In this document: one piece after another, positions 6,136-35,843 of the stretch
Position numbering within the stretch: position 1 is the first letter of the stretch
Layout of the letters: each line of letters starts with the position of its first letter
DNA from: an uncultured Fibrobacterota bacterium
GTDB taxonomy: Bacteria; Fibrobacterota; Fibrobacteria; UBA5070
Assembly (NCBI GenBank): GCA_903825275.1
Contig: CAIKAA010000499.1
Location: 1 to 48,756, forward strand
Reading direction: 5' to 3'
Length of the DNA: 48,756 nt
Position numbers and translations under genes: made by a program
Notes under the pieces: model-generated
What the model saw: the letters and a program-made list of their open reading frames with translations, nothing else
Database searches by the model: none
What the model was told of the DNA's origin: nothing

Positions 6136-6286
6136 CTAGCGACCATACTCTGACCGCGACCAGCGTCTAGAGAGCACGATTTTTCCGTTTGTCGGTCTGA
6201 ACGTGGAGCGAAGAATGCGGTCAGAAGCTATCCTCCATCGGTCCGTCGGATGGCCTCTCGGCGATCCAAACCGGAGGAGCTTTGTT

Positions 6287-9200
6287 GTGATTTTCCTACG
6301 AAACCTCAGTTTCCCGACTCTTTCGGCTGTTTTGCTGGCCGCTGGGGCGTGTTTTGCTGCCGATCCGACGCCTTATGATTCCATTGCGAACCCTCTGGGA
6401 CTGCTGCCTCAGACCGATGCGACTGTTCAAGCTAAGGGTGACCTGTTAAATATGAAGCTGTCTCGGATCCGGCTGAACCAGGCGGGGTATCGAACGGTCG
6501 ATGTCGCGGCGGGGATGGCGAAGTTCTATTACTTGAGTGCATCCGGGACTTCGGCAATCTTTCAAGTTGTCTCGCCCAACGGGATTGCTGTGGGCACCTT
6601 AGGCACCATGGCAGCGAAGGTCGGAGGAGGTGTTGTTTCCGGCTCGGTCGTCGCCTATGCATCGAATTCGGCGGAACACAAAGACAACGGCGATGGGGAT
6701 TTCAAGCCGGGCTACCCCATGACGAGTGCAACGGTTTCAGGCACTTTGTTGGAAGGCATTCTACCGGCGACGTTGCCCACTGGAATCTATCGAATCGCCG
6801 TTGGTTCGGACACCTCGGTCAAATTCATCGTCAGCGACAACGTTTATGGGATGGCCCGTGATGCCGCAATGAAGTTCTTTGGTGTGGCCCGCTCGGGCGA
6901 TTACCAATCGTGGTTCCATCCCCCCTCACACATGTGGGATGGATGGCTTTACGATAGCGCTGCCCGCAATCCCGATGGATCCTACAAGTACAAGGGCGCA
7001 CTGACCGGGGGGTGGTACGATTGCGGCAATCACCTCAAAGAAGCGAGAACCAATAGCTATCCCCTTGCCACCTTGGGAATGGTAGCTGCGACCATGCCAG
7101 ATCGCAACCCCGATCATTTTGGTCTGAACCAAGCAAATACCCGTCAAACCGACGGCATTCCCGATATTTTGCGCGAGGCTTGGGTGGGGGCCCAGTTTGT
7201 TTTCAAATCGTACCGTCTTGCCCAGGGCAAAACAGCGAACATGTACTTGTCGGTTGGGGATCCGATCAAAAAACTCGATTTCATGTGGTGGGGGCGTCCC
7301 GAGAACCAAGACAATGTCCTGAGCGTGAATCGAGGTGGACGTCGCGAAAGAGGGGTGATTAAGAATTGGGGCTCGGCTTCGATGGCGGATTATGCCGCAG
7401 GGTTGGCTTTCCTGTCCAAACAGTACCGCCCCTATGATGCGGCATTTGCCGACTCCGCCTTGATGATCGCCAGGGCGATGTACCAGCAGGCCAAAACCAG
7501 CAATATGCAGGAAGGCCCCTCGGACTATTTCGGGGAGACGATAAACAACGATGATCTGGCACTGGCTGCGGTGGCCCTTCTATGGGTCACTGGAGAAAAG
7601 CCATTTCTGGACGATCTGATCACCACGCCTTTCATGCCCGACGGAGCTGGGGGCACCTGTGGCGCCACCCAGATCGCAGCTTTCCCGGCGGCCTCGTTTG
7701 CCGGCGGGTTCATGGGATGCGGTTCGAACAACATGACCCACGGAACTGCCCAATTGGCGTGGGCCAACGTCAACGATCTCGCACTGTATTCTTTTATGAA
7801 GCTGATCCTGAAAGATGATGCGACCTCGACAAAATACGGCATCACTCCTGCCGATCGGCTGGCTCTGTATGAGAAATGCCTATCGAACTTGATGTACAAC
7901 ATCTCCGATGCGTCGGTGGGAAGCGCCTCGGTCGCACTGCCAGCGCCCACTGCAGGGCTTGGATGGAAATTCACCAAATACAACTACGATCCCATTTGGT
8001 ACAGCTCGGCAGTAAGCACTCCCGGTTGGTGGAACAAGTACCAGTTTGGCAACCTCGCTTCGCTGTACCTGTACTACGACGCGACCTCGGCTGTCGAGGG
8101 GGTTCCTCTCCCGCATTTCCCCGGTGGGACCGATTGGAAACGCAAGGAGGTTCTTCAGGCCTTGCTTGGTGGACTGAATTACATGCTCGGGACAAATCCT
8201 GTCGATCTTTCCTATATCCTTGGCATTGGGTCGAAAAACCCAAACCACCCCCACCATCGTGCCGCAAATCCGGATGGACGCAATGTGCCAGGTGCCTATT
8301 ACAACTACGCCATCCCCACTGGTGGACTTTATGGGGGTTCGATCACCGGCCCCACGAACACGGAGGTTCTCGTAGACCGGCATGCGGACAACGCCAATCA
8401 ATTCAAGGTTTCGGAAGCGAACTGCCCCGATGCATCGGCAGCCATGGTCATCCCTTTTGCCGGCCTTGCCCGCTCGGAGGTCCCACGCGCGCCCAATGCA
8501 ACCGTGAAGGTCCTCTACACCACCGACACCTCGGCGGTGATCCAGGTCGATTTGGACAAGTGGGGGTTTGTCAACCTCAAGTACGGCCTGGATTCGGTCT
8601 TGGTCAACCAGACAAATTCCGTCAACGGAAACGACACATCGGTTTCCATCCGCGTGAACATCAACAAGCTCAAGGCCGGAACGCAGTACTTCTTCAACGT
8701 CGCCTCGTCGGATTTGTACGGGAATGGTTCCCTGGTGGCCAAGTGGCCCAATGGATCGAGCGACTCGATTCCGTTCACCTTCACCACAAAAGCAACCCCT
8801 CAACCTCCTCCAACCTTTGGCAACATCAAAGTTTGCAACGTCACCTCCGATTCGGCGGAAATCCTATGGGTTACGCGGAATGGACAATATCTGTCCGGTG
8901 TGTTGTTTGCCGACAGCGCTAGTTGGAAGTCCGCGGCTTACTCGGAAGTCGACAGCGATGTGGTCGGAAACGTCCCGGTCACATTTCACCACGTCAAGCT
9001 CCATGGGCTCCGTCCCAAGACGACCTACTACTTCAAGGTGGGGGTTCCCGGATCCTACGACGCCACTGTGGGGTGCTTTCGCACACCCAATGAAGATGTG
9101 AAATTCGATGTGCGCGCTTCTGGATACATGTGGAATGGGATGCGCACTCTGACTGTCGCGATCACCAACCAAGACAACAAGCCTTACGATTCCTTGCAAC

Positions 9201-12200
9201 TTCGACTTTATGTGACGGGCACTGCCGCCAACGTCTTTGACCTAGGCTTGCGTTGCGACATTGGGATCAAGTACCGCAGCGATGGCTTCCAGGACTCCGG
9301 AGTGGTTGGAGTGATCAATCCGAATTTGCGCAAGTCGCATCCCAAGAAGATCGACTCCACTTGTAGCGACACCCAGATCTGCCAATGGTATTTCGATGTG
9401 CCGCTATGGGGAATCGGGATGGAATCGCAGGCGCGGATGCGATTGGACCTGGTCTGGGACAAGCACAAGATAGAGATGAGCCAAGGTCCTAACCCGGTTC
9501 CAGTACTGTTCGACGACCTCTTGAACATGGCCCCGACCCACGATGTGTTCGATCCGGCCAATGGCGATTGGTCGATGCGTCCGCATGTGGCGGGGACTGA
9601 CAACGGTCTTTCGCCGGTCGATTTTGGCGGGGTCAAGTACACCAACGACGCCACGACCAAGGAAATCATGGATCTGGCTCCCCAGACCGTGGAGGTCAAC
9701 CCGTATATCGCGGTCTACCGGCGCAATGATTTCGTCTACGGCTATTCTCCCTTTGCCGGCGAACAAGCCAAGAAGCGCACCGTCTACGCGATGAACGCCC
9801 AATTCAACGCGCCCTTCGATGTCGCCAATGGCTCGACCATCCAGATGGGAACCGCTTCTTCGACCCGCCTCACGGGAACGGCCGATGTCTACGACCAACT
9901 CACGCCCGGGGCCAAGGGGTACATCACCTCGATCTGGGTGAATGGCGTCCCCCTTTCCGATGCCGCCCGCAAAGGCGCAGCCTTGCGCCAACCGGATGGC
10001 ACCTGGAAACTCAACATCCCCTTGCAGCTCACCACGGGGACCAACAAGCTGGACGTGACCCTGTTCGCCAGCTCCGACTCCACCGACACCGCCTCGACCG
10101 CCGGGACTTGCACCGACGGCAAAGGCTGCGCCTTCCAAAACAACGAGTGGTACGTCAACTACGCCTCCAACCTCACGCCGTCCTTGCTGACGGTGGTGGA
10201 TGGATCCGGCAACGTTTTGGGCTTGGTGACGCCCGACAGTTCGAGATTGGTCATCCGCGTCCAGGACGGCAACGCCAACCTGGTGAAGACCGCCGTCGAC
10301 AACCTGAACGTCTCGGTGACCAATCTCCGCACCGGCCTCGCGGTGGTGCAAGCCCTCTCCGAAACGGGAGCAAGCACCGGCATCTTCCAAACCAACCTGC
10401 TATCCTTGGTTTCTGGCGTCGCCACCACGGGCCAATTGCAGATGCTTCCCGGTGACACCTTGCTGGTGAAGTATGTCGATGCCTCGGACGCGACGGATAG
10501 CAATTCCGTCAAAATCTGGTCGAAGACGACTTGGCCGTCGCTGGTGTCTGGGGCGGTTGTCGCTGGTTGTGGGGGGACTCAGATCCAGGCCAAACTGGAC
10601 CGGCCGGTGGGTGCAGGAGGTGTCCTTGGTTCCGAAATCCTCTCCAACGCGGATTTCGAAAATCCCGCGGCCACTTTTTTGGATGAATTTTACCAGTATT
10701 CGGGCCCATTGGGTGGGTGGACTGCCCAACATGTGGATGTGGTTGGGTCGTTTGTCCCTGGTCTCGAGCCAGCGGTTGGCAAACAATCGGTCGATTTGAA
10801 TGACGTCAATCCAGGATCCCTCGGGCAAGCCGTGAACCTGGCGGTCGGCACAACAATTCGACTGTCGTTCCAATACTCCGTCAATCCAGCTCCAGCCGGC
10901 GTTTCAACAGCTCCACGGCTTCGGCAAGCGGAGATCATTTGGGATGGGATCGCTTTGGATACGTTGGCTTGGGACATTGTTTCCGAGCCACAACGAACTT
11001 GGAAGCGGTATTCGATCAATTTGGTCGCCACGGGCCATGACTCCATCTGCTTCCGTGCTCTGACTTCCGGCAATGCTGGAATCATGCTGGATGACATTTC
11101 GATCAAATCGATCGGCGGATCCTTGGGCTCTACGATCACCGATTCCATTGCAAGTGGTTTGGTTGTTCTGACAAACTCCAACGGGGACACCCTCTCCCGT
11201 CAATCCATCTCCGCTTCGGATGTGCGGGTCAGCGGCGATGGAACCAACCTTTCTATTGCTTCGACGATTGCGGATCCAAAAATGGTTGCAGGAGGAGTGT
11301 TGTCCTTGCAGATCCGTACCCAAAACGGAAGAATGATCACGACAAGCGTCCCCCTGAAGGACTCCATCGGCCCCTGGATCGACTCGGCAAAAATTGTCGA
11401 GAATCTTGGCGGAAGCCCTGTCGACACGCTTCTCTTGTGGAACTCCGAGCTGACCAAGCCACTGGGAAAGACTCTTCCCGTTCTTTTGCAGCGCAATGGT
11501 TTGGCTTCATCCACAGCCGGGCTGACGGTGGATTCGGCTTGGTTGTCGGATGCCGCCACGGGGCGCTGGACATACGCGATTCGCGGAGGGGTGATTCACG
11601 CCCACGACAGCTTGCGGTGGAATCCGACTCTCGTCCAAGATCTTCACGGCAATCCAGCTCTCGATTGCCCGTCGCTGTTGCGCGAGGTCAAGTTGGTTTC
11701 GCGGCCAGCACCCTTCTCGCGGGCCTGGTTGAAGGATGCGAACGGCGATGGACTTGCCGATCAGGTGACCCTGATCTTCCGCAAAATGCTGGTCGCCTCC
11801 GATCTTCCCAATTCCATCCAAGCGACCTTTGGTTCCGGGAATGTGGTGCGGACCGCCTTGGTAGACATCTCGATGGCGACAGATTCTGTCCTGGTGGTGC
11901 CGCTGGCCAATCCCTTCCCGATCACCGAGACCCGCGGGTCGGCGCTCGACGGATCGGGAAGCCTCCTGCTGACCAAATCGGGCGACCAAACGGGCCCCTA
12001 TGCCTTGATCGACAGTGTCGGGCCAGTCCTCTTGACGGCCAAGCTGCGCTATGGTTCCACAAACACCGATAGCCTGGAACTGGAATTTTCGGAGCCGGTT
12101 CGGGCCGGTACAGGCACGGGCTGGTTGGTCAAGTCGCCGGCCTTCGAGTTGGGAACGGTTGGTCTGCCCACTTCGATCTCCTCCACGGTTTGGAAACTTC

Positions 12201-13435
12201 CCATCGATACCGCGATGGTTTTGCCGGGCGACTCGGTTCGGCCCCTTGCCTTGGGGAAATGGGTGGATGGATCGAAGGACAATCGAGTGGGAATCAATCA
12301 TCCCTGGGTGGTTGTGGCCGGTGGCGAGCGCGCCCCCGTGGGCGGGTGGTTCCAGGATCTGAATGGAGATGGAGCGGTCGACCAGGCGACTGTGATGTTT
12401 GCCAAAACCCCGCGGACTCGGTCGGCCATGAAACTGCTTTGGCCTTCTCGGACAGGTTTTGACACCGTCAAGATCGACAGCGGGAACTGGACCTTGAATC
12501 CAGATGGATTGTCGGCCACCATTTCGGTCGGTCCTTTCACCCCAGGAATCACGTCCAGCTCCACCAACTTGCTCGGACGCTGGAGCTCCGACGGCGTGGT
12601 CAGTTCCTTCCCCATGACCGACAAGGTGCCGGCGGTGATCCTTTCCGCCACGGTTCGCTATGCCTCTGCCTTGGGCCTTCCCGACACCCTGAAGGTGCGC
12701 TGGAGCGAGGCTTTGACCTGGTCTATCGGATCCTCTTTGGTGTTCCGAAAAAATTTGGTCAAGAACGTGTTGGGGGAAGCCGTTCGACAGGCAGATCTTC
12801 TTCGCGATCCGGATGGACTCGGTGCATCCCTTTTGATGAACCCGGACTCGAACGCCATGCGACGCGGCGATTCGGCGAAATTGGCTCCCAATGTTGCCGA
12901 CCTGTTGGGGAACCAGGCGATCGATCCGACCGTGTGGGTGCCGGTGACCTTTGGATTGCGACCGCCTCGATTGGATGCGACTCTGCGCCCTTACTTCAAG
13001 TACGACAAAACATGGGAATTCGGCACCGGGCCGTCCTTCCAGACTTGGGTGTGGGATCGGGATCAGGAACGCTGGATGTACCCTGATGGCAGTGTGCCGA
13101 CAGATGTCGATTCGAGCCACTTTGCCAGCTTGACCCTGACCTTGAACCAAGTCGTGGAAGCCTTCGCCTACATCTACGACAATGGCGGCGCCTATGTCGC
13201 CTCGGCAAACTTTAAGGACATCCGCAAGCTGGCTGCCGAGGGCAAGTTGCCCATGGATGCTTCGGGAAGCTACCAAGCGCGCTTCGCTTGGGATGGTCGA
13301 GCCAACACGGGCAAGATGGCGGCCAGTGGGGTGTACTACATGCGCTTGCTCATGACCTTCCAAGTCGAGGGCCAAGACAAGCCCTACATCGTCAACCGGG
13401 TTTACACCCTTGGCTTCAAGCACTCGGTGAAGTGA
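6287..13435 (+). CDS. Giant secreted multidomain protein with a divergent GH9-like (endoglucanase-fold) domain, paralog 1
   Basis: The longest frame is 6203..13435. I prefer GTG 6287 because GGAGGAG lies 7 nt upstream and it gives the signal peptide MIFLRNLSFPTLSAVLLAAGACFA/AD. GH9 hallmarks: CelD_N-like 'IRLNQAGY'; 'GGWYDCGNHLKE' at the DAGD-motif position; 'GIGSKNPNHPHHR' (G-x-K-x4-P-H-x-R); 'DNANQFKVSE' (D-x4-F-x3-E). Two FN3-like modules follow ('TSAVIQVDL...GTQYFFNV', 'SDSAEILWVT...KTTYYFKV'). After those come a CBM3-like 'ITNQDNKPYDSLQLRLYVTG', a DUF642-like jelly roll, Ig-like 'SEPV' modules with DxNGDG loops, and a tail 'FAWDGRANTGKMAASGVYYMRLL' resembling FlgD-Ig/T9SS C-terminal domains. 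Confidence 0.85.
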   Translation: MIFLRNLSFPTLSAVLLAAGACFAADPTPYDSIANPLGLLPQTDATVQAKGDLLNMKLSRIRLNQAGYRTVDVAAGMAKFYYLSASGTSAIFQVVSPNGIAVGTLGTMAAKVGGGVVSGSVVAYASNSAEHKDNGDGDFKPGYPMTSATVSGTLLEGILPATLPTGIYRIAVGSDTSVKFIVSDNVYGMARDAAMKFFGVARSGDYQSWFHPPSHMWDGWLYDSAARNPDGSYKYKGALTGGWYDCGNHLKEARTNSYPLATLGMVAATMPDRNPDHFGLNQANTRQTDGIPDILREAWVGAQFVFKSYRLAQGKTANMYLSVGDPIKKLDFMWWGRPENQDNVLSVNRGGRRERGVIKNWGSASMADYAAGLAFLSKQYRPYDAAFADSALMIARAMYQQAKTSNMQEGPSDYFGETINNDDLALAAVALLWVTGEKPFLDDLITTPFMPDGAGGTCGATQIAAFPAASFAGGFMGCGSNNMTHGTAQLAWANVNDLALYSFMKLILKDDATSTKYGITPADRLALYEKCLSNLMYNISDASVGSASVALPAPTAGLGWKFTKYNYDPIWYSSAVSTPGWWNKYQFGNLASLYLYYDATSAVEGVPLPHFPGGTDWKRKEVLQALLGGLNYMLGTNPVDLSYILGIGSKNPNHPHHRAANPDGRNVPGAYYNYAIPTGGLYGGSITGPTNTEVLVDRHADNANQFKVSEANCPDASAAMVIPFAGLARSEVPRAPNATVKVLYTTDTSAVIQVDLDKWGFVNLKYGLDSVLVNQTNSVNGNDTSVSIRVNINKLKAGTQYFFNVASSDLYGNGSLVAKWPNGSSDSIPFTFTTKATPQPPPTFGNIKVCNVTSDSAEILWVTRNGQYLSGVLFADSASWKSAAYSEVDSDVVGNVPVTFHHVKLHGLRPKTTYYFKVGVPGSYDATVGCFRTPNEDVKFDVRASGYMWNGMRTLTVAITNQDNKPYDSLQLRLYVTGTAANVFDLGLRCDIGIKYRSDGFQDSGVVGVINPNLRKSHPKKIDSTCSDTQICQWYFDVPLWGIGMESQARMRLDLVWDKHKIEMSQGPNPVPVLFDDLLNMAPTHDVFDPANGDWSMRPHVAGTDNGLSPVDFGGVKYTNDATTKEIMDLAPQTVEVNPYIAVYRRNDFVYGYSPFAGEQAKKRTVYAMNAQFNAPFDVANGSTIQMGTASSTRLTGTADVYDQLTPGAKGYITSIWVNGVPLSDAARKGAALRQPDGTWKLNIPLQLTTGTNKLDVTLFASSDSTDTASTAGTCTDGKGCAFQNNEWYVNYASNLTPSLLTVVDGSGNVLGLVTPDSSRLVIRVQDGNANLVKTAVDNLNVSVTNLRTGLAVVQALSETGASTGIFQTNLLSLVSGVATTGQLQMLPGDTLLVKYVDASDATDSNSVKIWSKTTWPSLVSGAVVAGCGGTQIQAKLDRPVGAGGVLGSEILSNADFENPAATFLDEFYQYSGPLGGWTAQHVDVVGSFVPGLEPAVGKQSVDLNDVNPGSLGQAVNLAVGTTIRLSFQYSVNPAPAGVSTAPRLRQAEIIWDGIALDTLAWDIVSEPQRTWKRYSINLVATGHDSICFRALTSGNAGIMLDDISIKSIGGSLGSTITDSIASGLVVLTNSNGDTLSRQSISASDVRVSGDGTNLSIASTIADPKMVAGGVLSLQIRTQNGRMITTSVPLKDSIGPWIDSAKIVENLGGSPVDTLLLWNSELTKPLGKTLPVLLQRNGLASSTAGLTVDSAWLSDAATGRWTYAIRGGVIHAHDSLRWNPTLVQDLHGNPALDCPSLLREVKLVSRPAPFSRAWLKDANGDGLADQVTLIFRKMLVASDLPNSIQATFGSGNVVRTALVDISMATDSVLVVPLANPFPITETRGSALDGSGSLLLTKSGDQTGPYALIDSVGPVLLTAKLRYGSTNTDSLELEFSEPVRAGTGTGWLVKSPAFELGTVGLPTSISSTVWKLPIDTAMVLPGDSVRPLALGKWVDGSKDNRVGINHPWVVVAGGERAPVGGWFQDLNGDGAVDQATVMFAKTPRTRSAMKLLWPSRTGFDTVKIDSGNWTLNPDGLSATISVGPFTPGITSSSTNLLGRWSSDGVVSSFPMTDKVPAVILSATVRYASALGLPDTLKVRWSEALTWSIGSSLVFRKNLVKNVLGEAVRQADLLRDPDGLGASLLMNPDSNAMRRGDSAKLAPNVADLLGNQAIDPTVWVPVTFGLRPPRLDATLRPYFKYDKTWEFGTGPSFQTWVWDRDQERWMYPDGSVPTDVDSSHFASLTLTLNQVVEAFAYIYDNGGAYVASANFKDIRKLAAEGKLPMDASGSYQARFAWDGRANTGKMAASGVYYMRLLMTFQVEGQDKPYIVNRVYTLGFKHSVK

Positions 13436-16400
13436 TGCGACACGGGTGGGGAGCGTTGGCGTTTCTGGTAGCCGTCGCCTTCACGGATGCCAGGGCCGCG
13501 ATCGACTTGACTTGTGCGACCTGCGACCGCAGGGTGTTGGATTCGCAAAACGTCCACATTGGTTCGGTGCGAATCAACCAAGTGGGATACCGCACGGACG
13601 ATCCGCACAAGCGCGCCGTCGTGGGAGACCCGAAGTCGACCACTTTTAGCGTGTTGCGTACCAATCATTCGGTGGCATTCACGGGGGCCTTGGCCAGCCA
13701 AGGGACGTTTCCCTACAAGGGTCGGATCCTGACCCGGGGCTATTTCAATTCGACCACGGCTCTCTACGATTTCAGAAACACCAACGATACCGATTCGGTC
13801 ACGGTCACCTCCAAAGAGCCGCTTTGGACGGCTGATTTCGGCGGCCTGTTGGAAGAAGGAACTTTCCGCGTGGCCGTGGGGCCCGACACCTCCCTTCCCT
13901 TTGACATCCGCATGACGATCTACAACGACGTGTTCGAAACCTCGCTCAAGTATTTCGGGATCGAACGTTCGGGAGACAATGGCTCGTGGATGCACGGGCC
14001 AAGCCACATGAAGGATGGATCCGGTCGACCGGGAGGGAATGCCAAATCCGGGAGCCTTTCCGGGGGATGGTACGACTGCGGGGATTACTTCAAGGTGGGG
14101 CAGACCGATGCCTACGCCTTCACGAATCTGATCCTCGCCTACACGCTGTGGCCCCAAAAGGCCGAAGACCGCTATGGCAATTCCTACCTGGACACGATTC
14201 CCTTTGGCAATGACGGAGTGCCCGACCTGTTGCGCGAGGCGAAAATCGGGGCAGATTTTGTCGTCAAGCTCTACAAGGCTTCGGTGGAAGACGGCTTGAT
14301 CGCCAACCACGACATGTACCAGGAGGTGGGCGTTTGGGACAATGACCACTCCCTCTGGGACCAGCCCGAGCGCCAAGACGCGGCCCCGATCGCCAAGGGC
14401 GGTGCGCCTCGGCCCGTCGATGCCGGCGCGGGCGCGGCAGTGGCAGCCCAATTCGCGGGATCACTGGCCTTTTTTGCCAAGGCGTGGGTCCCCTTCGATC
14501 CGGTCTATGCCGATTCTTGTCTCAAAATCGCCAAGGACATTTATGCCAAGGTGGTGATCCCCAACTGGAACGCACCGGGATTTGCACCGGTCAAATTTTA
14601 CATCGTCCAAGGTCGCTGGGACGACGATCTCGCATGGGCCGCCACAGGCCTTTGGTACGCGACAGGTGACACGGCTTACAAGTTCGATTTGATGGGAAAC
14701 ACGACCTACGGGAACAATCCCCTGTCGGTGTTCAATTTCGAGACCTTCAAGGCAGGGTTTTTGGCGATGCACACCTCGCATCTGTTCTCGCCGGGCGGCT
14801 GGGTGATGGATTATCAAAACACCTTCATCCATCCCATTTGGGCCTTGTGGGATTTGTTCTACAAGACCGATGTCTTGGCCGCCAAGTGGGGAATTCCCCA
14901 GGCCGAAGCGATCGACATGCGCAAGCGGATTTTGCGGCTGGTGGGGTCGCGCTACGCCCACGAGACGACGAACAGCCCCGATGGTTCGGTGTATCCTGGC
15001 ACGAATGTCAACATCCTGCGCCCCTACGATTTGGTTTGGTCCTCGAACACTTGGGGCATGAACCGCTACAACCTGGGAGGATTGCTCCCGATTGTCGCCT
15101 ACCACGAGATGATCAAGGGGGATAGCGCAACGTCGGCGGCGAACTATTGGAACATTGTGCTGGACAACATGAATTACAACCTGGGGGCCAATCCCTGGGA
15201 CATCAGTTTCGTGATGGGGGCGGGCTCGAAAAATCTCCAGCATCCCCACAACCGCATCTCCAATCCCGAAGGCTACAACGCCGGCGGCATTCCGTACGCC
15301 TACCGTTCCCCCAAAGGGGCCTTGATGGGCGGCGCCATTCCCGGGCAGCTGTTGCGCGACGAATGGGTCAAGTACGACGTCACCGAAACCTGCATCGACT
15401 TTTCTTCCCAGATGGTGCTGCCGTCCCAATACCTCGCCCTCGACCTTCCTCCCGACACGACCGGTCCCGTCTTCTCGAACGTGACGGTGGTGTGGGTTTC
15501 CGACACCTCGGCAATCGTCTCTTGGCAGACGGATGAATTGTCGCGCGATACCCTTTTCTACGCCGGTTCGGTGGGAGGGGTTCCCATCGGTTACCAGGTG
15601 GCTTCTCTCGCGAAGTCAAAATCTGTCACGCTGACGGGTCTTTCCCCAAAGACCACCTACGATTTCCGGTTCGTGGGGATGGACATCTACCGCAATGTGA
15701 GTCGCGACAACAACCGGGGACGCGACTACCAGCTCACCACAACGTCTACCGCGCCGCCGTTGCCAAAACTCACCGACGTCAAGGCCTGCAACATCCGGTC
15801 GGACCGCGCCACCCTCTATTGGTGGACCGACGTTCCTTCGACATCGTCGGTGGAATACGCCGTGGAAGGAGCCAATTTCGCAACCTCGAAAATACGGGTG
15901 GATGGTGACGACGAGGGCATTCCGGGGCGTTTCCACAAAGTCACCCTCAAGGGATTGGCTCCCGGAACCACCTACCGCTACGACGCGATTTCCGGCCCCG
16001 CCCGCGAAGACAGTGGCGCCTTGCACTACCGGTTCACCACCACCGCCGATTTTGCCAACTACACGGTTCAGATCAAGGCGACGGATCGCTACAACGCCGG
16101 TGCGGGAGCCCATTTCTATCTGGAGGTGGCCAACAACGAATCCAAGCCCTATGTGGGGCTGGAGCTTCGTTTCTACTTCAAGGCCGATGCGGCGACGGCG
16201 TCAAAAATTGTCGTCCACTCCAACGACAACATGCTTTATCTCGTCACCGGACTGGCCACGGTGCTTCCACCCCAGGTCACCTTTGGCTCGGCCCAGCCGG
16301 TGGCCGGGGTGGACAGCACCTGGTACATCCCCATCACGATCGCGGATACCTTGCCGGTAGCCGGGCGGTTGCGGATCGAAATGAAGTTTGGCGATGTGAA

Positions 16401-19400
16401 CTGGATCCCCCTTCCCTTCTCCAGCTTGAAGAACTCCTGGTCGTTGGTGGCGCACACGACCCCGGCACCGTTCGCGGGAGTGGATCTGAACCACCTATGG
16501 GCCGAAGCCCAGCCCGTGGAGCTGTGGAACAACGTGCCCACGGTGACCTATGTGCAGGATCCGTACATCGCCGCCTACTATCACGGCGAGCATATCTACG
16601 GCTACACCCCGGATGGCGACAAACCCAAGCTCCCTCGTTCGGTGGGGTTTGCCTTTGATGGTCCACTTCCCAGTCCTGCTACTTCGGTGAAGCAGGATTC
16701 CGTCTTGGTCCACTTTTCCGGCCGTACCTGGGGCAAACCCGATGTGACCAGCATGTTGGTCCAGCGAGATTCTCCGGCCTTCGTTCCCACCACCGGAATT
16801 CTCTCGCGGGCGGATTCGGTCCGGTTTGCCCAAATCCTGACCGATCCCCAAGGAACCACCTCCCACGAATGGGCGTTTTGGGCCGACCGCTCGACCCCGC
16901 TGTGCGCCTGCGCTTGGCAGCGCTACACAGTGGTCGTGGACACGATGAAGGTGCCGCCCCGAACCTTGCACTTTGGTTGGAATCCCTCGGGTGCGGTGGA
17001 CGCCTTTGCCTCGACCCGCAAACCGCTCACCTTGAGTTTGTTCGACTCGTCGGGTCTTCCTTTGGACACCTCGGTTGGGGCAGCCCTTTCGGCAAGCGGG
17101 TCCAGGTTGACCTTCTGGTCGGCGGCCACGGGCGGGTCGATGATCACGACCTTGGCCTTGGTTCACGGCACGGCCCAGGTCTGGGTGTCCGACAATTTCG
17201 CCGACACGGTGGTCGTGTCCGGATCGGCCTCCCTTGCGGGTTCGGTGGTGACGTCGGGATCGGTGACTGTGCGGTTCGCGGCGGCTCCCCCGTGGCCCCT
17301 GGTCGACAGCGCCTGGACCCTCGACGCCAATTGCGATGGGATTCCCGATTCGGTTCGGATTTCCTTGTCCAGTGCGATCCCACCCGGTGTCCAAGCGACC
17401 GGTTTGGGTCTGGTCCTCGATGGAAAGCCCTCCCTTTATCCGCCCACCTCGCTTCAAATCAATGGACAAATATTGTCTATTGCAGCCCCGGCAGGAATGA
17501 CGGGTGCGAGTTTTGGAACGGGTCGACTGGCCCTGCATGTGACCACGGGCGGACGGAATCTGGACACGGCTTCAGCCTTTGTGGTCACGGACCGGGTTGG
17601 CCCGGTGGTGCTTTCGGTTTCGGCCCAAGAGCGATTTGGAGCCGGACTCGACACGGTCCGCGCCGCCTTCTCGGAGCCCGTCACGTCCCATGGCGGCTGG
17701 CCATTTGGCGTGCGGCGTTCGGGAGCCATGGTCGCGACACCTCTGGGGCCGATTTTGGTCCGCAATGCCTTGCCTGATTTGTTGGAGTGGAGTTTGTCCC
17801 AAACCTCCTTCGCCGCGGGGGATTCGGCCCTTTGGTCCAACCCCGGACTGGTCGTCGATTTGGCGGGAAATGCGGCCCAATCCTGTAAATCTCCCGGTTC
17901 GATCGGGTTGCGTCGCAAGACGGTTCCCTTGCAAAGCGCCGCCATCGTAGATGTTGACGGGGACGGGCGCGCCGATTCGGTCCGGCTGCGTTTTGTCCGC
18001 GCCCTGGGCGACATCGAGCTGCCAGATTCCGTCAAAGTGTCGTGGGGCCCCAGGGACTCTGCGATTGTCCTTCCCGCCGCCCTGATCTTCCGATCCCCAG
18101 ATAGCACGGTCCTTTCCTTTCGTGTCGGTTTCCCTTGGGGATGGACCTCGGCTTCTTTGGCGGGTGCCAATCTCTTGGTGCTGCAAGGCGATGCCGCCAC
18201 GGGGCGCCGCGATGCGAGGTCGACGATCGACAGCGTCGGGCCGGTCCTGTTGGCGGCTACCTTGCGCCGGGGTGCCCTCACCGATACCTTGCGGATCACG
18301 GTTTCCGAGCCGGTCCGAGCCGGGGGAAGTGTGGACTTGTCGCGCCAGGGTCGCTTGGATTGGACCTCGCTTTCTAGAATTGGGTCGACAGATTCTGTCT
18401 CGTGGAAGCTGGTCGCTCCCTCGGGAGCTTTCCAAGACGGCGATTCGGTGAAGCTGGCCCCGGCCCTTTCGTTGGGGGTCTTTTCGGACCGATCCGGAAA
18501 TGCTGCGGCGCCCAACGCCCCATGGATTCGGGTCCAGGCAGGCGATGGGGCGCCCCTTGTGGCCGTGGCCCAAGATCTCGATGGCGATGGCAAGGCCGAA
18601 ACCATTCGTCTGAGCTGGGAAAAGCGTCCTCGTCGGGCACACGGGTTTGTTTTTTCGGCCCAGGATTCGTCCGGACAGGTGGTTATTCGAACGGTTCCTT
18701 CGGGGGTCGGAACCTGGACGAGTGCGGGAGACACTTTGGTGATCGCCTTGGTCGACCCATTCCCCTTTGGCCTGACTTCCGGCTTCAACACATCGACCCA
18801 GACCGAATTATTCGACGATGGCTCCCTCGACAGCCTGCCTTTTGCCTTGACCGATGGGGTGGCACCGGTCGCCGTGTCGGCCATGATCCGCTACGCCTCG
18901 GTCGGCCAGACCCTGGACACCCTGGTGGTGCGTTCCAGCGAGCCCACGATCTTTGGGAGTCCGGATTTATTCCAAGTCACCACGGCTCAAGGATTGGTGA
19001 ACACTGTCCATGGGATTGGCGCCGGTCAATCCCCCGATGGCCGCACCACATGGCTTTTGCTGAATCCCTTGGATTCCGCGATCACGAGCTTTGGGCGGGG
19101 AGACAGCTTGCGTTTGTTCTCGCCCAGCGCCCGCGATGGCCAGGGGAACTTGGCCTTGGCCAATGGGCACCTGGTGCGGGTCCAATTCGGCACCCGACCG
19201 CCTCGATTCACGCTCGACTTCCTTCCCGGCTTAAAAATCCAGTCCAACGGGACCAAACCAACCGGCGCTCCCATCGAAATTTTGGTGCGACGCTTGGGTT
19301 CGAACCGCTGGACCACGTTGGACGGTCTTCCTGTCGAAGAAAATTCTCCGCGCATCGGGCCGCGGATCCAGACGAACTCCCCCTTGGGTGGTGCCTTGGC

Positions 19401-19668
19401 GATCTTCGACAACATGGGCACCTATGTCGGTGGACAAAATCTGTCTGGATTGGAAAGCAAGGCGGCCCGCGGAGAATTGGATGTCGATCCGGTGGGCCAA
19501 TACGAAGTTTGGATCGCGTGGAATGGGTTGACCTCCAAGGGCACCCTGGCTGCTTCCGGTGTCTACGCGGTGCGGCTGATTTTGCGGCGCAATGTCGGGT
19601 CGAGCTCCAGCTACTTGGGGCAAGACTGGATGAACCAAGTCTATCGCATCGGGTGGATTGTGAAATAA
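13435..19668 (+). CDS. Giant secreted multidomain protein with a GH9-like domain, paralog 2
   Basis: ATG 13435 overlaps the upstream TGA (TGATG). Signal peptide MRHGWGALAFLVAVAFTDARA/AI. Collinear with paralog 1: 'VRINQVGY', 'GGWYDCGDYFKVGQTDAY' (DxGD intact), 'GAGSKNLQHPHNR', 'DEWVKYDVTE'. It also has two FN3-like modules ('TSAIVSWQT...KTTYDFRF', 'SDRATLYWWT...GTTYRYDA'), CBM3-like 'VANNESKPYVGLELRFYFKADAA', three DxDGDG loops, Ig-like 'SEPV' modules, and the tail 'IAWNGLTSKGTLAASGVYAVRLIL'. Confidence 0.85.
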   Translation: MRHGWGALAFLVAVAFTDARAAIDLTCATCDRRVLDSQNVHIGSVRINQVGYRTDDPHKRAVVGDPKSTTFSVLRTNHSVAFTGALASQGTFPYKGRILTRGYFNSTTALYDFRNTNDTDSVTVTSKEPLWTADFGGLLEEGTFRVAVGPDTSLPFDIRMTIYNDVFETSLKYFGIERSGDNGSWMHGPSHMKDGSGRPGGNAKSGSLSGGWYDCGDYFKVGQTDAYAFTNLILAYTLWPQKAEDRYGNSYLDTIPFGNDGVPDLLREAKIGADFVVKLYKASVEDGLIANHDMYQEVGVWDNDHSLWDQPERQDAAPIAKGGAPRPVDAGAGAAVAAQFAGSLAFFAKAWVPFDPVYADSCLKIAKDIYAKVVIPNWNAPGFAPVKFYIVQGRWDDDLAWAATGLWYATGDTAYKFDLMGNTTYGNNPLSVFNFETFKAGFLAMHTSHLFSPGGWVMDYQNTFIHPIWALWDLFYKTDVLAAKWGIPQAEAIDMRKRILRLVGSRYAHETTNSPDGSVYPGTNVNILRPYDLVWSSNTWGMNRYNLGGLLPIVAYHEMIKGDSATSAANYWNIVLDNMNYNLGANPWDISFVMGAGSKNLQHPHNRISNPEGYNAGGIPYAYRSPKGALMGGAIPGQLLRDEWVKYDVTETCIDFSSQMVLPSQYLALDLPPDTTGPVFSNVTVVWVSDTSAIVSWQTDELSRDTLFYAGSVGGVPIGYQVASLAKSKSVTLTGLSPKTTYDFRFVGMDIYRNVSRDNNRGRDYQLTTTSTAPPLPKLTDVKACNIRSDRATLYWWTDVPSTSSVEYAVEGANFATSKIRVDGDDEGIPGRFHKVTLKGLAPGTTYRYDAISGPAREDSGALHYRFTTTADFANYTVQIKATDRYNAGAGAHFYLEVANNESKPYVGLELRFYFKADAATASKIVVHSNDNMLYLVTGLATVLPPQVTFGSAQPVAGVDSTWYIPITIADTLPVAGRLRIEMKFGDVNWIPLPFSSLKNSWSLVAHTTPAPFAGVDLNHLWAEAQPVELWNNVPTVTYVQDPYIAAYYHGEHIYGYTPDGDKPKLPRSVGFAFDGPLPSPATSVKQDSVLVHFSGRTWGKPDVTSMLVQRDSPAFVPTTGILSRADSVRFAQILTDPQGTTSHEWAFWADRSTPLCACAWQRYTVVVDTMKVPPRTLHFGWNPSGAVDAFASTRKPLTLSLFDSSGLPLDTSVGAALSASGSRLTFWSAATGGSMITTLALVHGTAQVWVSDNFADTVVVSGSASLAGSVVTSGSVTVRFAAAPPWPLVDSAWTLDANCDGIPDSVRISLSSAIPPGVQATGLGLVLDGKPSLYPPTSLQINGQILSIAAPAGMTGASFGTGRLALHVTTGGRNLDTASAFVVTDRVGPVVLSVSAQERFGAGLDTVRAAFSEPVTSHGGWPFGVRRSGAMVATPLGPILVRNALPDLLEWSLSQTSFAAGDSALWSNPGLVVDLAGNAAQSCKSPGSIGLRRKTVPLQSAAIVDVDGDGRADSVRLRFVRALGDIELPDSVKVSWGPRDSAIVLPAALIFRSPDSTVLSFRVGFPWGWTSASLAGANLLVLQGDAATGRRDARSTIDSVGPVLLAATLRRGALTDTLRITVSEPVRAGGSVDLSRQGRLDWTSLSRIGSTDSVSWKLVAPSGAFQDGDSVKLAPALSLGVFSDRSGNAAAPNAPWIRVQAGDGAPLVAVAQDLDGDGKAETIRLSWEKRPRRAHGFVFSAQDSSGQVVIRTVPSGVGTWTSAGDTLVIALVDPFPFGLTSGFNTSTQTELFDDGSLDSLPFALTDGVAPVAVSAMIRYASVGQTLDTLVVRSSEPTIFGSPDLFQVTTAQGLVNTVHGIGAGQSPDGRTTWLLLNPLDSAITSFGRGDSLRLFSPSARDGQGNLALANGHLVRVQFGTRPPRFTLDFLPGLKIQSNGTKPTGAPIEILVRRLGSNRWTTLDGLPVEENSPRIGPRIQTNSPLGGALAIFDNMGTYVGGQNLSGLESKAARGELDVDPVGQYEVWIAWNGLTSKGTLAASGVYAVRLILRRNVGSSSSYLGQDWMNQVYRIGWIVK

Positions 19669-19696
19669 GCCTCGCTCCGACAGGGGCGGTTTTTTG
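19669..19696 (+). terminator. Possible intrinsic terminator after giant gene 2
   Basis: Directly after TAA (19666-19668) comes 'GCCTC gctccgaca GGGGC GG TTTTTT'. This is a short 5-bp stem (one G:U pair) followed by a T6 run. The stem is weak and the T-tract is clear. Confidence 0.45.
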
Positions 19697-19724
19697 ATTC
19701 CCAATCCTGTATACTGGGGTGACG

Positions 19725-20645
19725 ATGGATCAAACAATCGCGCCGCTGGTGAGTTTTTTGGAAACCGTGCTTTTGGGCAAGCCCCAAGCGGTTCGTTTGT
19801 TGGTGCAAGCCTTGCTTGCCGATGGCCATGTGTTGTTGGAAGATGTGCCGGGAACCGGCAAGACGACGTTGGCGCGCGCCTTGGCCGCCGGAATCGGTGC
19901 CGATTTTCGCCGCATCCAATTCACCCCCGACCTATTGCCCACCGATGTGACCGGAGGGGCCATTTTCCGGCCCACCACCGGTGAATTCGAGTTGCGCAAA
20001 GGTCCCGTTTTCGCGAATGTCTTGTTGGCCGACGAGATCAACCGGGCCTCACCGCGGACCCAAAGCGCCCTTTTGGAGGCCATGGAAGAGCGCCAGGTCA
20101 CTTTGGAAGGCGATCCCTTCCCTTTGCCCGATCCCTTTTTGGTCCTGGCGACCCAGAATCCCATCGAATTCCACGGTGTCCACCCGCTTCCCGAAGCCCA
20201 AATGGACAGGTTTTTGATTCGCTTGGAGATTGGCTACCCCGACGAGGAAACGGAGCGGCAGATTTTGGCGGGGCACCGGAGCCTTCGTCCAACTGACGCC
20301 AAGATGGCCGCAGTGACGACCCTTTCGGAGGTGTTGGCTTCGCGCCAGAAGGTTCGCGCCCTCCACATGGATCGGGCGATCGAAGGCTACATCGTGGCCT
20401 TGGTGCGAGCCACGCGCGCCCATCCTTCGGTGCGGCTGGGAGCCAGTCCCAGGGCCGTCTTGGCGTTGGGATCCTTGGCGCAGGCGGCGGCCTGGATGGA
20501 GGGGCGGGACCATGTCCGGCCCGAAGATGTCCAAGACGTGGCCCGACCGGTTTTGGGCCACCGGATCTTGGCCCGCGAGGCGTCGTCGGGAGCCGTGAAC
20601 CGGATTGTCGAAGACGTGTTGCGAACGGTTGCGGTGCCGGCCTGA
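19725..20645 (+). CDS. MoxR-family AAA+ ATPase
   Basis: Walker A 'EDVPGTGKTTLARALA', 'RIQFTPDLLPTDVTG', Walker B/sensor region 'VLLADEINRASPRTQSALLEAMEERQVT', 'FLVLATQNPIE'. The track starts at GTG 19719; ATG 19725 is equally possible. Confidence 0.9.
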   Translation: MDQTIAPLVSFLETVLLGKPQAVRLLVQALLADGHVLLEDVPGTGKTTLARALAAGIGADFRRIQFTPDLLPTDVTGGAIFRPTTGEFELRKGPVFANVLLADEINRASPRTQSALLEAMEERQVTLEGDPFPLPDPFLVLATQNPIEFHGVHPLPEAQMDRFLIRLEIGYPDEETERQILAGHRSLRPTDAKMAAVTTLSEVLASRQKVRALHMDRAIEGYIVALVRATRAHPSVRLGASPRAVLALGSLAQAAAWMEGRDHVRPEDVQDVARPVLGHRILAREASSGAVNRIVEDVLRTVAVPA

Positions 20646-20656
20646 GAGCTTCCCCC

Positions 20657-26485: not shown

Positions 26486-26782
26486 CTGCCTGTTTCGTAG
26501 TGCCGTTGTAGTCGATCCAACCGCTAAGGGTCGGGCCGTCAAACCTAACGCCATAAGTCCCCGCAGACAGCTCCAAACCGAGGCGATCGAAAAGCCTGTC
26601 CTGAGAAGGTGTTTACGAAGAGAGGAATCAATTTATCCGCTCGGCCTGAGGAGCGGCGCCTGCCCTTAGATTGTCGAAGGGACAGGCTTTCAGGGAAGCG
26701 GAACCGAAAAGATGGATCACTTGGTGCGGAAATCCGGAATGGATATGACACCATTTTACAACCAAGGGAGAGTGGTTCCAGA

Positions 26783-26788
26783 TATAAT
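26783..26788 (+). promoter_or_regulatory. Perfect TATAAT hexamer 7 nt upstream of ATG 26795 (possible leaderless-type promoter)
   Basis: 'gaTATAATccctctATG'. I found no good -35 at 17 +/- 1 nt, so this is speculative. Confidence 0.25.
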
Positions 26789-26794
26789 CCCTCT

Positions 26795-31650: not shown

Positions 31651-31651
31651 A

Positions 31652-35840: not shown

Positions 35841-35843
35841 CCG

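Follow-up and report, generated by a model that had tools for sequence, protein, structure and literature searches.

A tandem pair of giant GH9 genes

The window, a stretch of 48,756 nucleotides from the genome of an uncultured bacterium of the Fibrobacterota, a phylum of cellulose degraders, contains two very large tandem genes of the glycoside hydrolase family 9 (GH9), denoted here ORF-A and ORF-B.

6273-6289, forward strand: Shine-Dalgarno sequence GGAGG (6273-6277, 9 nt 5' of the GTG) and GTG start of ORF-A (6287-6289), read in the sequence
6287-13435, forward strand: ORF-A, 2382 aa, GTG start; giant GH9 paralog (clade A1) that has lost the catalytic base
13433-13437, forward strand: TGATG, in which the ORF-A stop and the ORF-B start overlap, one base shared
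13435-19668, forward strand: ORF-B, 2077 aa, ATG start; giant GH9 paralog (clade B) with intact catalytic residues
19672-19699, forward strand: terminator-like hairpin and T-run, seen in the sequence directly 3' of ORF-B

Both reading frames are intact and open, which confirms the initial annotation of two giant ORFs overlapping by a single base, and all the peptide strings quoted there are found in the translations. Homologs of ORF-A align from the GTG start, with query coverage of 98-100%, and the arrangement is best explained as a putative two-gene operon. Putative Sec signal peptides, judged by eye only, are present in ORF-A (MIFLRNLSFPTLSAVLLAAGACFA/AD) and in ORF-B (MRHGWGALAFLVAVAFTDARA/AI). 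The two proteins had been described as collinear but diverged paralogs and, judging from their sequences, this is what they are: BLASTP aligns them in the same domain order with 28% identity over 1162 aa (E 4e-91), and their C-terminal 750 aa with 33% identity (E 1e-62).

Conservation of the pair in Fibrobacterota

Both the pairing and the size of these proteins were originally considered unusual; however, they are not peculiar to the window but are conserved across the class Fibrobacteria. The search found 513 relatives, of which the 80 listed carry Fibrobacterota labels, save for a few bins with other labels. Phylogenetic analysis showed two deep clades, A and B (121 and 120 cluster representatives, respectively), both of which occur across the class, including rumen Fibrobacter, and among the 43 genomes that list both, 40 have A immediately 5' of B in the same orientation. 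A related MAG encodes three giants, as does a same-genus genome. Given that the present genome is itself an MAG of 600 contigs and that the relatives lack the one-base overlap, their A and B being separated by ~10-75 nt, the tandem might be construed as a local duplication of recent origin or as an artefact of assembly, without functional pairing. This highly improbable scenario is effectively refuted by the two deep clades, both with orthologs throughout the class, and by the prevalent A-then-B order; furthermore, the identity between A and B is only 28-33%.

The N-terminal heads and a hidden CBM3 fold

The N-terminal half of each protein consists of the following modules.

6449-6841, forward strand: ORF-A Ig-like (CelD_N-like) module, ~aa 55-185, collinear with the ORF-B CelD_N region
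6845-8467, forward strand: ORF-A GH9 (alpha/alpha)6 domain, aa 187-727 (PF00759, E 3.8e-43; PDB GH9 matches)
8489-9076, forward strand: two FN3 (X1-like) modules of ORF-A, aa 735-930 (fn3 and Pur_ac_phosph_N matches; alignment with ORF-B)
9077-9841, forward strand: ORF-A CBM3-like module with insertions, aa 931-1185 (row of the family alignment; collinear with the modelled ORF-B module)
13552-13914, forward strand: ORF-B Ig-like CelD_N module (PF02927, E 1.4e-9 over aa 44-106)
13921-15429, forward strand: ORF-B GH9 catalytic domain, aa 163-665 (PF00759, E 2.6e-59; alignments to 1ia6 and 4cj0)
15457-16029, forward strand: two FN3 (X1-like) modules of ORF-B, aa 675-865 (fn3, E 2.8e-8; Pur_ac_phosph_N, E 1.3e-11)
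16030-16680, forward strand: ORF-B CBM3-fold module, aa 866-1082 (profile, AF2 model, Foldseek)

As annotated from the outset, both N-terminal domains belong to GH9 (Pfam Glyco_hydro_9, 149 bits for ORF-A and 202 bits for ORF-B, along with PDB GH9 matches; an own-genome search places the ORF-A match at 6845-8425), and each protein contains two FN3 modules; the PDB FN3 matches of those in ORF-B are weak. The CelD_N module claimed for each protein is significant in ORF-B but not in ORF-A itself, for which it is supported by collinearity and by matches in the family (19 of 23 members in a Pfam search). The proposed HMM annotation of these two proteins recovered GH9 and fn3 but not CBM_3 and FlgD_ig (both below significance in Pfam) or TIGR04183 (no match at E <= 0.01), so family profiles and a structure model were needed to identify the CBM3 module and the C-terminal domain. 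The family profile for the ORF-B module matches the CBM3a structure 1g43 (E 5e-4), and the alignment from which it derives includes the ORF-A module. The AF2 model of the ORF-B module (pLDDT 88) has 28 top Foldseek matches, all of them to CBM3 (the best being 4jo5, E 1.7e-7, TM 0.71), despite an identity to solved CBM3s of 14-20%. Profile and predicted structure together confirm the suspected CBM3-like module as a hidden CBM3 fold. In the Fibrobacter papers, no CBM3 has been reported among Fibrobacter cellulases.

The architecture of the head is not unusual, contrary to the original assessment, because the first ~1080 aa repeat the Ig-GH9-X1-X1-CBM3b core of Clostridium thermocellum CbhA, a Cel9 cellobiohydrolase with the layout CBM4-Ig-GH9-X1-X1-CBM3b-dockerin (PMC3766687). 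The order Ig-GH9-FN3(X1)-FN3(X1)-CBM3 is common to CbhA and the pair, and the CbhA Ig-GH9 (1rq5/1ut9) and CBM3b (3zqx) structures are among the sequence and fold matches. Unlike CbhA, the pair lacks the N-terminal CBM4 and the dockerin, has an Ig-like stalk of ~1000 aa and a FlgD/T9SS-like C-terminal domain instead of the latter, and carries Cys for Ala in the DAGD motif; the sequence identity is low.

Disrupted active site of ORF-A

7019-7030, forward strand: DCGN of ORF-A replacing the GH9 motif DAGD, the second Asp (catalytic base) being Asn (alignment to Cel9M, 1ia6)
14074-14085, forward strand: DCGD of ORF-B (alignments to 1ia6 and 4cj0; acid Glu651 in TETC)

Cys does replace Ala in both proteins, as first noted, but the motif of ORF-A reads DCGN rather than DCGD, so that both aspartates are kept by ORF-B only. 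In Cel9A, D55 and D58 serve as the base, whereas the acid is a Glu (PMC4221708). DCGN is present in all 19 members of the ORF-A subclade, a monophyletic group with a support of 1.0, in which the replacements of the base Asp by Asn, of an active-site His by Phe and of an Arg by Lys are each 100% conserved; clade B and the other clade-A members retain D, H and R. In particular, the Fibrobacter A-type proteins keep DCGD/DH/NRY where ORF-A has DCGN/DF/NKY. Most members of the DCGN clade also lack the Tyr that precedes the acid Glu.

In the same clade, the acid Glu and the first Asp, along with HPHHR and the majority of the cleft residues, are 100% conserved, and, in a same-genus comparison, the A1 GH9 domain is more conserved than the stalk (60% vs 47% identity). 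Given that both aspartates have been described as sharing the base function in Cel9A (PMC4221708), both proteins could be active cellulases, with ORF-A using the first Asp of DCGN as the base or having a shifted specificity or mechanism (transglycosylation, a different glucan). We consider this unlikely: the D, H and R residues changed together, with the Tyr mostly lost as well, and between the same two genomes, the GH9 identity is 60% for A1 compared to 80% for B (ORF-B and its same-genus ortholog), a much faster apparent evolution of the A1 domain that we count in support of relaxed constraint. Moreover, A1 in relatives adjoins an A2 copy that is intact, consistent with duplication followed by subfunctionalisation. 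Thus, ORF-A is probably hydrolytically dead or crippled and would be a non-hydrolytic binder of glucan chains and cellulose, although residual or altered activity may persist with the first Asp and the acid Glu intact. ORF-B, with the full GH9 catalytic set, is best explained as a working beta-1,4-glucanase. Of the initial characterization of the pair as cellulose-binding and cellulose-cleaving, the cleaving part therefore probably applies to ORF-B only, the ORF-A clade having lost the base and two more active-site residues.

Non-catalytic 'pseudo-enzymes' with glycoside hydrolase folds are employed as carbohydrate binders. ORF-A resembles these in that the fold is conserved and the cleft residues are kept while the catalytic base is replaced. 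To our knowledge, there is no characterised pseudo-enzyme of the GH9 family.

The C-terminal halves: stalk and C-terminal domain

It is the C-terminal half, that is, the stalk and the C-terminal domain, rather than the head, that is distinctive in both proteins.

10607-11122, forward strand: jelly-roll insert (choice-of-anchor C / MAM-like) of ORF-A only, aa 1441-1612 (TIGR04362, MAM)
11123-13096, forward strand: ORF-A beta-sandwich stalk with DxNGDG loops (DANGDGLAD, DLNGDGAVD) (33% identity to the ORF-B stalk; motif positions)
13097-13432, forward strand: ORF-A C-terminal domain, ~110 aa, WDG..G..AASGVY..RL...LGFK (own-genome HMM, E 6e-22), reaching to within 1 residue of the stop
16681-19329, forward strand: ORF-B stalk of Ig-like beta-sandwiches (AF2, Foldseek, motif positions)
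19330-19665, forward strand: ORF-B C-terminal beta-sandwich domain, WNG..G..AASGVY..RL...IGW (own-genome HMM, E 4e-23; AF2; PDB and NCBIfam profile matches)

The stalks, ~900-1200 aa long, precede the 110-aa C-terminal domain. The AF2 model of the ORF-B stalk, built from 8 sequences only and with the first 91 residues unmodelled, is all-beta (pLDDT 75), with Foldseek matches to multi-Ig proteins; the beta-sandwiches come after the poorly modelled segment (aa 1083-1173). The original description of about 1000 aa of Ig-like 'SEPV' modules holds with respect to the Ig-like stalk, but literal SEPV occurs once per protein (with one SEPT in ORF-B), and the stalk is better described as ~210-aa two-module repeats, three in ORF-B (starting with DANCDGIPD, DVDGDGRAD and DLDGDGKAE) and two plus a partial one in ORF-A. 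The Asp-rich loops possibly bind Ca. The insert in ORF-A matches TIGR04362 with E 1.7e-11 over positions 2-157 of 157, albeit below the cut-off, and MAM with E 0.001; otherwise, it is found in only 9 clade-A relatives, from the DCGN and other A subclades.

The C-terminal domain of ORF-B is modelled with six strands and one helix (pLDDT mostly 70-90). Homologous domains terminate ~20 ORFs of the genome, that is, ~18 large ORFs besides the pair, and in 19 of the 20 matching ORFs the domain lies 0-15 residues from the stop, the exception being a weak internal match; among ten such ORFs scanned, PA14 is present in two, Calx-beta in two and GLUG in one. The domain profile matches the C-terminal domains of FlgD, PorU (6za2 residues 1082-1146 of 1156, E 0.0018) and PorZ in the PDB, and among 22 such domains, the NCBIfam model for PorZ matches 9, that for PorU 8 and TIGR04183 4. 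These matches indicate a relationship with FlgD-Ig and with the C-terminal domains of PorU and PorZ. The suggestion of a FlgD-Ig/T9SS-type domain thus stands for FlgD-Ig, but the canonical T9SS type-A model (TIGR04183) is failed: the pair's domain forms a class separate from the 16 canonical C-terminal domains of the same genome, with a weak profile-profile match (probability 13%, 12 columns) to its 12 canonical type-A domains.

The combination of a Sec signal with a ~100-aa beta-sandwich at the extreme C-terminus, common to many large secreted proteins, nevertheless resembles type-A cargo. The search for T9SS genes, proposed as a check, had a mixed outcome: SprA is present (416 bits, above the cut-off), along with two PorU-like genes (322 and 280 bits) and one PorV-like gene (87 bits), all below curated cut-offs, but GldM was not found in the genome, and GldK is matched through a generic domain only. 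Multimodular T9SS-linked cellulases are known in 'Ca. Paraporphyromonas polyenzymogenes' of the Bacteroidota (PMC5831590), and T9SS export has been proposed for cellulases of Fibrobacter succinogenes (PMC6851124).

Fibrobacter succinogenes counterparts and localization

Fibrobacter homologs share 36-40% identity with the pair in the first 1100-1200 aa and remain collinear as far as the C-terminus. In a Fibrobacter contig, A and B are followed by genes for a histidine kinase, a response regulator and a sigma54 activator; unlike this locus, the window lacks these genes and has the one-base overlap. The pair presumably corresponds to Fisuc_0393/Fisuc_0394 (FSU_0809/FSU_0810) of F. succinogenes S85, a correspondence drawn from size, adjacency and the downstream sigma54 regulator in the papers and in Fibrobacter sp. 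loci rather than from the S85 sequence itself. The S85 genes are annotated 'glycoside hydrolase family 9' and are adjacent; as in the Fibrobacter sp. locus, a sigma54-type regulator is encoded within a few genes downstream of them (PMC3079729).

The S85 proteins are exported and cellulose-associated in proteomes (PMC4619616, PMC4668043), and their recovery from envelope, outer-membrane and extracellular fractions (PMC4619616, PMC6851124, PMC4668043) supports the export originally predicted for the pair. Fisuc_0393, of 233 kDa, was seen in the proteome of the envelope on cellulose only (PMC4619616), is stably expressed above the 90th percentile (PMC6204037), and had previously been identified as an outer-membrane protein that binds carbohydrates (PMC4668043). 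However, both proteins show enrichment in the extracellular medium, where, according to Burnet et al., Fisuc_0393 is ~6-fold more abundant than in the outer membrane (PMC4668043), so the view of the pair as cell-surface fibres rather than released enzymes is tentative. Together with the failure of TIGR04183 and the presence of non-T9SS FlgD and C5a-peptidase domains among the best PDB matches, these data would fit released enzymes or vesicle cargo, with no wall-anchored fibres and with a merely structural or adhesive Ig-like (FlgD-type) C-terminal domain. This is possible but rather doubtful, given that the extreme C-terminal position of the domain is typical of a sorting tag, that it matches PorU and PorZ, and that SprA is encoded. 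Most likely, we infer, the domain is a sorting tag read by the SprA/PorU-type (T9SS-like) machinery of the genome.

A predicted enzyme and a predicted cellulose binder

On balance, we find it fairly probable that ORF-A and ORF-B are a conserved Fibrobacterota pair of secreted GH9 giants, each with a CbhA-like head, a stalk and a sorting tag. Each protein would be made with a Sec signal peptide and would carry an Ig-GH9-FN3-FN3-CBM3 head, with a beta-sandwich chain of 900-1200 aa in the place of the dockerin; the C-terminal tag would be shared with the other large ORFs, of which those examined carry adhesin-type domains. After export, the proteins would be located at the outer membrane, on vesicles or in the medium, with the CBM3 holding them on cellulose. 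Conceivably, the two cooperate, with ORF-B hydrolysing beta-1,4-glucan and ORF-A, from a subclade in which N, F and K took the place of D, H and R and were then conserved, acting as a binder alongside it.

Two tandem giant paralogs and their surroundings

The initial annotation described two tandem, overlapping and collinear giant paralogs in the window, here ORF-A and ORF-B, and this description is borne out by the ORF coordinates, by the TGATG in which the two genes share one base, and by BLASTP, which aligns the proteins collinearly throughout with 28% identity over 1162 aa (E 4e-91) and with 33% identity in the last ~750 aa (E 1e-62). The peptide strings quoted at the time are all present.

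Features of the window
1-1725: secretin (Secretin/STN/Secretin_N), at the window start
6287-13435, + strand: ORF-A, GTG start with GGAGG 9 nt upstream, 2382 aa
13435-19668, + strand: ORF-B, ATG start, 2077 aa
14077-14079: Cys215 of ORF-B, the Cys of the DCGD motif
15391-15393: Cys653 of ORF-B, two residues after the catalytic Glu
19672-19699: terminator-like hairpin and T-run, directly after ORF-B

Since no terminator was found between ORF-A and ORF-B and one follows ORF-B, a two-gene operon is likely, and the stop/start overlap is compatible with a putative translational coupling of the two genes. The one-base overlap is particular to this genome, the corresponding gaps in relatives being 10-75 nt. 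A sigma54 promoter 5' of the first giant gene was considered because a sigma54 activator sits downstream in Fibrobacter, and was rejected, matches to GG-N10-GC (73 loci) being at the level of random windows; a sigma70-like promoter was looked for upstream of the same gene and not found.

The flanks of the giant pair are not conserved across relatives. Conserved linkage to the upstream secretin-pilus-like operon was rejected, given that a same-genus genome has no upstream similarity and the Fibrobacter neighbours differ; neither the secretin gene nor the pseudopilin genes show conserved linkage to the giants. Two N-methyl pseudopilin genes, within 31261-32590, adjoin MotA/MotB genes (34995-36689). 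Downstream, a trio of MoxR AAA, DUF58 (409-aa ORF) and transglutaminase genes (19719-23778) separates ORF-B from an HTH-PAS gene; the trio looks inserted here because in a same-genus genome, as in a related MAG, the HTH-PAS gene immediately follows B. Further on, a 680-aa ORF with no Pfam match (26609-28651) overlaps with the beginning of a small HSDR_N_2 (PD-(D/E)xK-like) gene, and a related MAG has both genes in synteny (613 aa and 106 aa).

A family of giants in Fibrobacteria

A word-indexed search with the N-terminal halves as queries returned 296 relatives of ORF-B and 205 of ORF-A, 1339-2655 aa long, with source names that were all Fibrobacterota, Fibrobacteria or Fibrobacter. A scan of species-representative genomes yielded 513 relatives, the best 80 of which are Fibrobacterota records, the cultured F. 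intestinalis ATCC 43854 among them, except for a few bins labelled otherwise. Giant GH9 pairs of the typical Fibrobacter kind at six loci (L038, L055, L067, L070, L073, L091) are filed in bins that bear the names Eggerthellaceae, Alistipes onderdonkii, Oscillospiraceae, Sodaliphilus, Methanomethylophilaceae and Senegalimassilia; these contigs are probably mis-binned. In a sample of 151 genomes, 93 had a match.

A maximum-likelihood tree from the N-terminal 800 aa of 241 cluster representatives divided the family into two deep clades, A (n=121), which includes ORF-A, and B (n=120), which includes ORF-B, each containing both environmental Fibrobacteria and rumen Fibrobacter. The pairing, previously held to be unusual, is conserved: in 40 of the 43 genomes of this sample with both A and B among the matches listed, A immediately precedes B, with both genes on one strand, and in the remaining three the two are on separate contigs. 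A Fibrobacter sp. contig, for instance, encodes A (2153 aa), B (1951 aa), a histidine kinase, a response regulator and a sigma54 activator, in this order; in other classes of Fibrobacterota, most sampled genomes have a single giant. Relatives also possess a third giant GH9, A2, a clade A member with intact catalytic residues, so that the order is A2-A1-B in a same-genus complete genome (G104; L012/L013) and A1-A2-B in a related MAG (JGI contig), A1 being the subclade of ORF-A. Only A1 and B were found in the present genome (96.8% complete, 600 contigs), with no A2. Origin of ORF-A by a deletion that fused A1 and A2 is ruled out by its full-length 53% identity to the same-genus A1. At 53-72% protein identity, synonymous sites are saturated. 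The pair is, then, the local member of an annotated but uncharacterised family that is conserved across the class Fibrobacteria.

A CbhA-like head with a divergent CBM3-fold module

The assignment of the N-terminal parts to GH9 was upheld by Pfam, with PF00759 (Glyco_hydro_9) scoring 148.9 bits in ORF-A (E 3.8e-43) and 202.1 bits in ORF-B (E 2.6e-59) against a cut-off of 27.7, and by PDB sequence matches, all of which are GH9 enzymes (Cel9M, CelD, Cel9G, CbhA, E4). Both proteins also have FN3-type Pfam matches, and ORF-B matches CelD_N.

The CBM3-like module proposed to follow the FN3 pair escapes Pfam CBM_3 (PF00942), which has no match at E <= 0.1 in either protein and is reached by only one of 23 family members (P0061, E 5.8e-4). 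Nevertheless, a 17-sequence family profile of this module had three matches in the PDB, all of them CBM3 (1g43, E 5e-4; 2xbt; 6d5b), and with an AlphaFold (AF2) model of ORF-B residues 866-1082 (pLDDT 88) the top 28 Foldseek matches were CBM3 structures, with target TM values of 0.50-0.73 (best 4jo5, E 1.7e-7, target TM ~0.7). Because profile, model and structure search agree despite the Pfam miss, the proposal holds: by this modelling, the module is a divergent CBM3 fold, with predicted cellulose binding. Read roughly, the 1g43 alignment may place a Trp and a basic residue of ORF-B at positions of the planar aromatic/polar strip. Fibrobacter members have the module in collinear position. This contrasts with the published view, in which no cellulase of F. 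succinogenes S85 is reported to have CBM1, CBM2 or CBM3 (PMC3079729) and Fibrobacter cellulases tend to be without identifiable CBMs (PMC6291624).

The architecture of the first ~1080 aa, initially considered unusual, is known from Clostridium thermocellum CbhA, which is organised as CBM4-Ig-GH9-X1-X1-CBM3b-Doc (PMC3766687) and the core of which has the same order as the head of the giants, Ig-GH9-FN3(X1)-FN3(X1)-CBM3. Unlike CbhA, the giants have no match to an N-terminal CBM4 or a dockerin and end in a chain of beta-sandwich domains (the stalk) and a C-terminal domain. A direct match of FN3-FN3-CBM3 to X1-X1-CBM3b of CbhA was sought by PDB sequence search and rejected, as only generic FN3 matches appeared.

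Loss of catalytic residues in one subclade of clade A

The replacement of Ala by Cys in the DAGD motif, reported for both proteins, stands and characterises the family, DCGD being present in 218 of the 241 representatives; the two proteins differ, however, in that ORF-B retains both aspartates (DCGD), whereas in ORF-A the second is replaced by Asn (DCGN). The 19 DCGN proteins form a single clade (support 1.0), namely A1, in which further residues are replaced.

Residues in the DCGN clade compared with clade B and the other clade A members
Second Asp of DAGD: Asn in the DCGN clade (100%, 19/19); Asp in the others
His of the D-H-x-x-W-x-x-P-E motif: Phe in the DCGN clade (100%); His in the others
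Arg of N-R-Y: Lys in the DCGN clade (100%); Arg in the others
Tyr at position -4 from the acid Glu: lost in most of the DCGN clade (Phe in ORF-A); Tyr in the others

The first Asp, the acid Glu (Y-x-x-x-E) and HPHHR are retained in every clade, the acid Glu with 100% conservation. In Cel9A, the two Asp residues serve as the base, with the Glu as the acid (PMC4221708, citing Zhou et al. 2004). In a same-genus genome pair, the GH9 domain is the best-conserved part of B, with 80% identity; in A1 it shows 60% identity, no better than the A1 FN3 modules and above the A1 stalk (47%). Given these identity patterns, the residue losses and the presence of A2 in relatives, the sequences fit a history of A1 in which duplication would have been followed by loss of catalysis, the protein being kept for a different role, for which the binding of glucan chains would be the simplest candidate.

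Across the N-terminal 800 aa, only two cysteines exceed 85% conservation in the family, those of DCGD and of E-x-C, which in ORF-B are Cys215 and Cys653 and in ORF-A lie in DCGN and SEANC. They occur together in 227 of the 241 proteins, and in the two members with the canonical DAGD the second site is Ser. The two cysteines may form a disulfide that links the acid and base loops.

The stalk and an insert in ORF-A

An AlphaFold model of ORF-B residues 1083-2077, built from an alignment of 8 sequences and with the first 91 residues unmodelled, is all-beta (mean pLDDT 75), and Foldseek matched it solely to multi-Ig/FN3 chains, namely, FMG1B, the T9SS-secreted grappling hook GhpA, DSCAM, the S-layer proteins SbsB/SbsC and alpha2-macroglobulins. 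Motif mapping delineates three ~210-aa repeats in the ORF-B stalk, each starting with D-x-[DN]-[GC]-D-G-x-x-[DE] and holding a 'D-x-V-G-P-V ... SEP[VT] ... D-x-x-G-N-x-A' module, and two such repeats plus a partial one in ORF-A; we infer that the Asp-rich loops could bind calcium. ORF-A also contains a 170-aa jelly-roll insert that is absent from ORF-B and shared with only 9 other clade A relatives, from DCGN and other A subclades. Its identity as a defined CBM was rejected, the only similarities being to choice-of-anchor C (E 1.7e-11) and to MAM (E 0.001), both below threshold.

A distinct C-terminal domain and the question of export

Both giants end in a ~110-aa domain, and an HMM built on the last 110 residues of the family matches ~20 ORFs of the present genome; in 19 of the 20 the match ends 0-15 residues before the stop, and the exception is a weak internal match (C201). 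The ~18 ORFs other than the giants that end in this WNG..G..aSGVYl.R...lGw/vK domain are mostly large (contigs C451, C354, C589, C232, C174, C29, C563, C515, with two ORFs, C120, C459, C199, C302, C307 and others; loci L002-L011), and in ten that were scanned its partners include PA14 and Calx-beta (up to 16 repeats), in two ORFs each, and GLUG in one.

The earlier view of a FlgD-Ig/T9SS-type terminus holds in part. In the PDB, the domain profile matches FlgD Ig-like domains (E 9e-5), a C5a-peptidase domain, and the C-terminal domains of PorU (residues 1082-1146 of 1156, E 0.0018) and PorZ (E 0.016); among NCBIfam models, single domains match PorZ in 9 of 22 cases, PorU in 8 of 22 and TIGR04183 in 4 of 22 (best TIGR04183 E 2.3e-4). 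By contrast, TIGR04183 (Por_Secre_tail) matches neither ORF-A nor ORF-B, and profile-profile comparison (hhalign) with the type-A domains of this genome is weak (probability 13%); a canonical T9SS type-A identity was therefore rejected. The ORFs with this domain do not overlap with the 16 ORFs of the same genome that pass TIGR04183. The T9SS genes, suggested as a check, gave a mixed picture: SprA is encoded above the cut-off, two PorU-like proteins and a weak PorV-like protein score under theirs, GldK is matched through a generic domain only, and GldM was not found in this 96.8% complete genome. On balance, we lean towards the view that giant surface proteins have in this C-terminal domain a distinct sorting tag related to T9SS. 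For F. succinogenes glycanases, T9SS export via basic terminal domains has been proposed (PMC6851124), but that study lists no such signal for FSU_0809. Overall, the initial annotation is confirmed in its observation and partly right in its interpretation.

Proposed counterparts in Fibrobacter succinogenes and possible implications

Fibrobacter succinogenes S85 has two adjacent GH9 genes, Fisuc_0393/0394 (FSU_0809/0810), with a sigma54-like regulator, Fisuc_0397, downstream (PMC3079729), and Fisuc_0393 is a 233 kDa protein detected in the envelope proteome only of cellulose-grown cells (PMC4619616). Because gene adjacency, the downstream regulator and protein size agree, we infer from the published description that this locus corresponds to the giant pair. 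Fisuc_0393 is among the CAZyme genes with expression above the 90th percentile and low variation (PMC6204037); the extracellular medium is enriched in both proteins, and Fisuc_0393 is also found in the outer membrane and was earlier identified as a carbohydrate-binding outer-membrane protein (PMC4668043). The two appear never to have been assayed, since the activity column for them is blank in the genome paper.

Degradation of crystalline cellulose by Fibrobacter is a question that has stood for decades: these bacteria have no cellulosome, no GH6/7/48 exocellulases and, according to the genome papers, no CBM1/2/3 on any cellulase (PMC3079729, PMC6291624). Conceivably, although as a whole this is rather unlikely, the giant pair is the missing crystalline-cellulose machinery of Fibrobacterota, where B would be a CbhA-like, CBM3-bearing processive cellulase and A its partner, in some lineages a purely chain-binding pseudo-enzyme. 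The two would be co-translated and exported via a T9SS-type class of C-terminal domains that had escaped recognition and is used by giant surface proteins, and they would assemble into a long fibre on the cell surface, by which cellulose chains are gripped and fed.

Against the literature searched, three findings appear to be new: that the module has a CBM3 fold, that the C-terminal domains form a separate class, and that the loss of catalytic residues is conserved in the ORF-A clade. The DCGN subclade, if the proposed history is true, would be an example of a GH9 enzyme turned binding protein, and the second class of C-terminal domains, found on large adhesin-like proteins, may widen the range of T9SS-type cargo outside Bacteroidota. 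Because it combines a divergent CBM3-fold module, a CbhA-like GH9 head, a stalk and a sorting-type C-terminal domain, the pair, highly expressed in F. succinogenes, is a concrete candidate for the binding and processive attack of crystalline cellulose.
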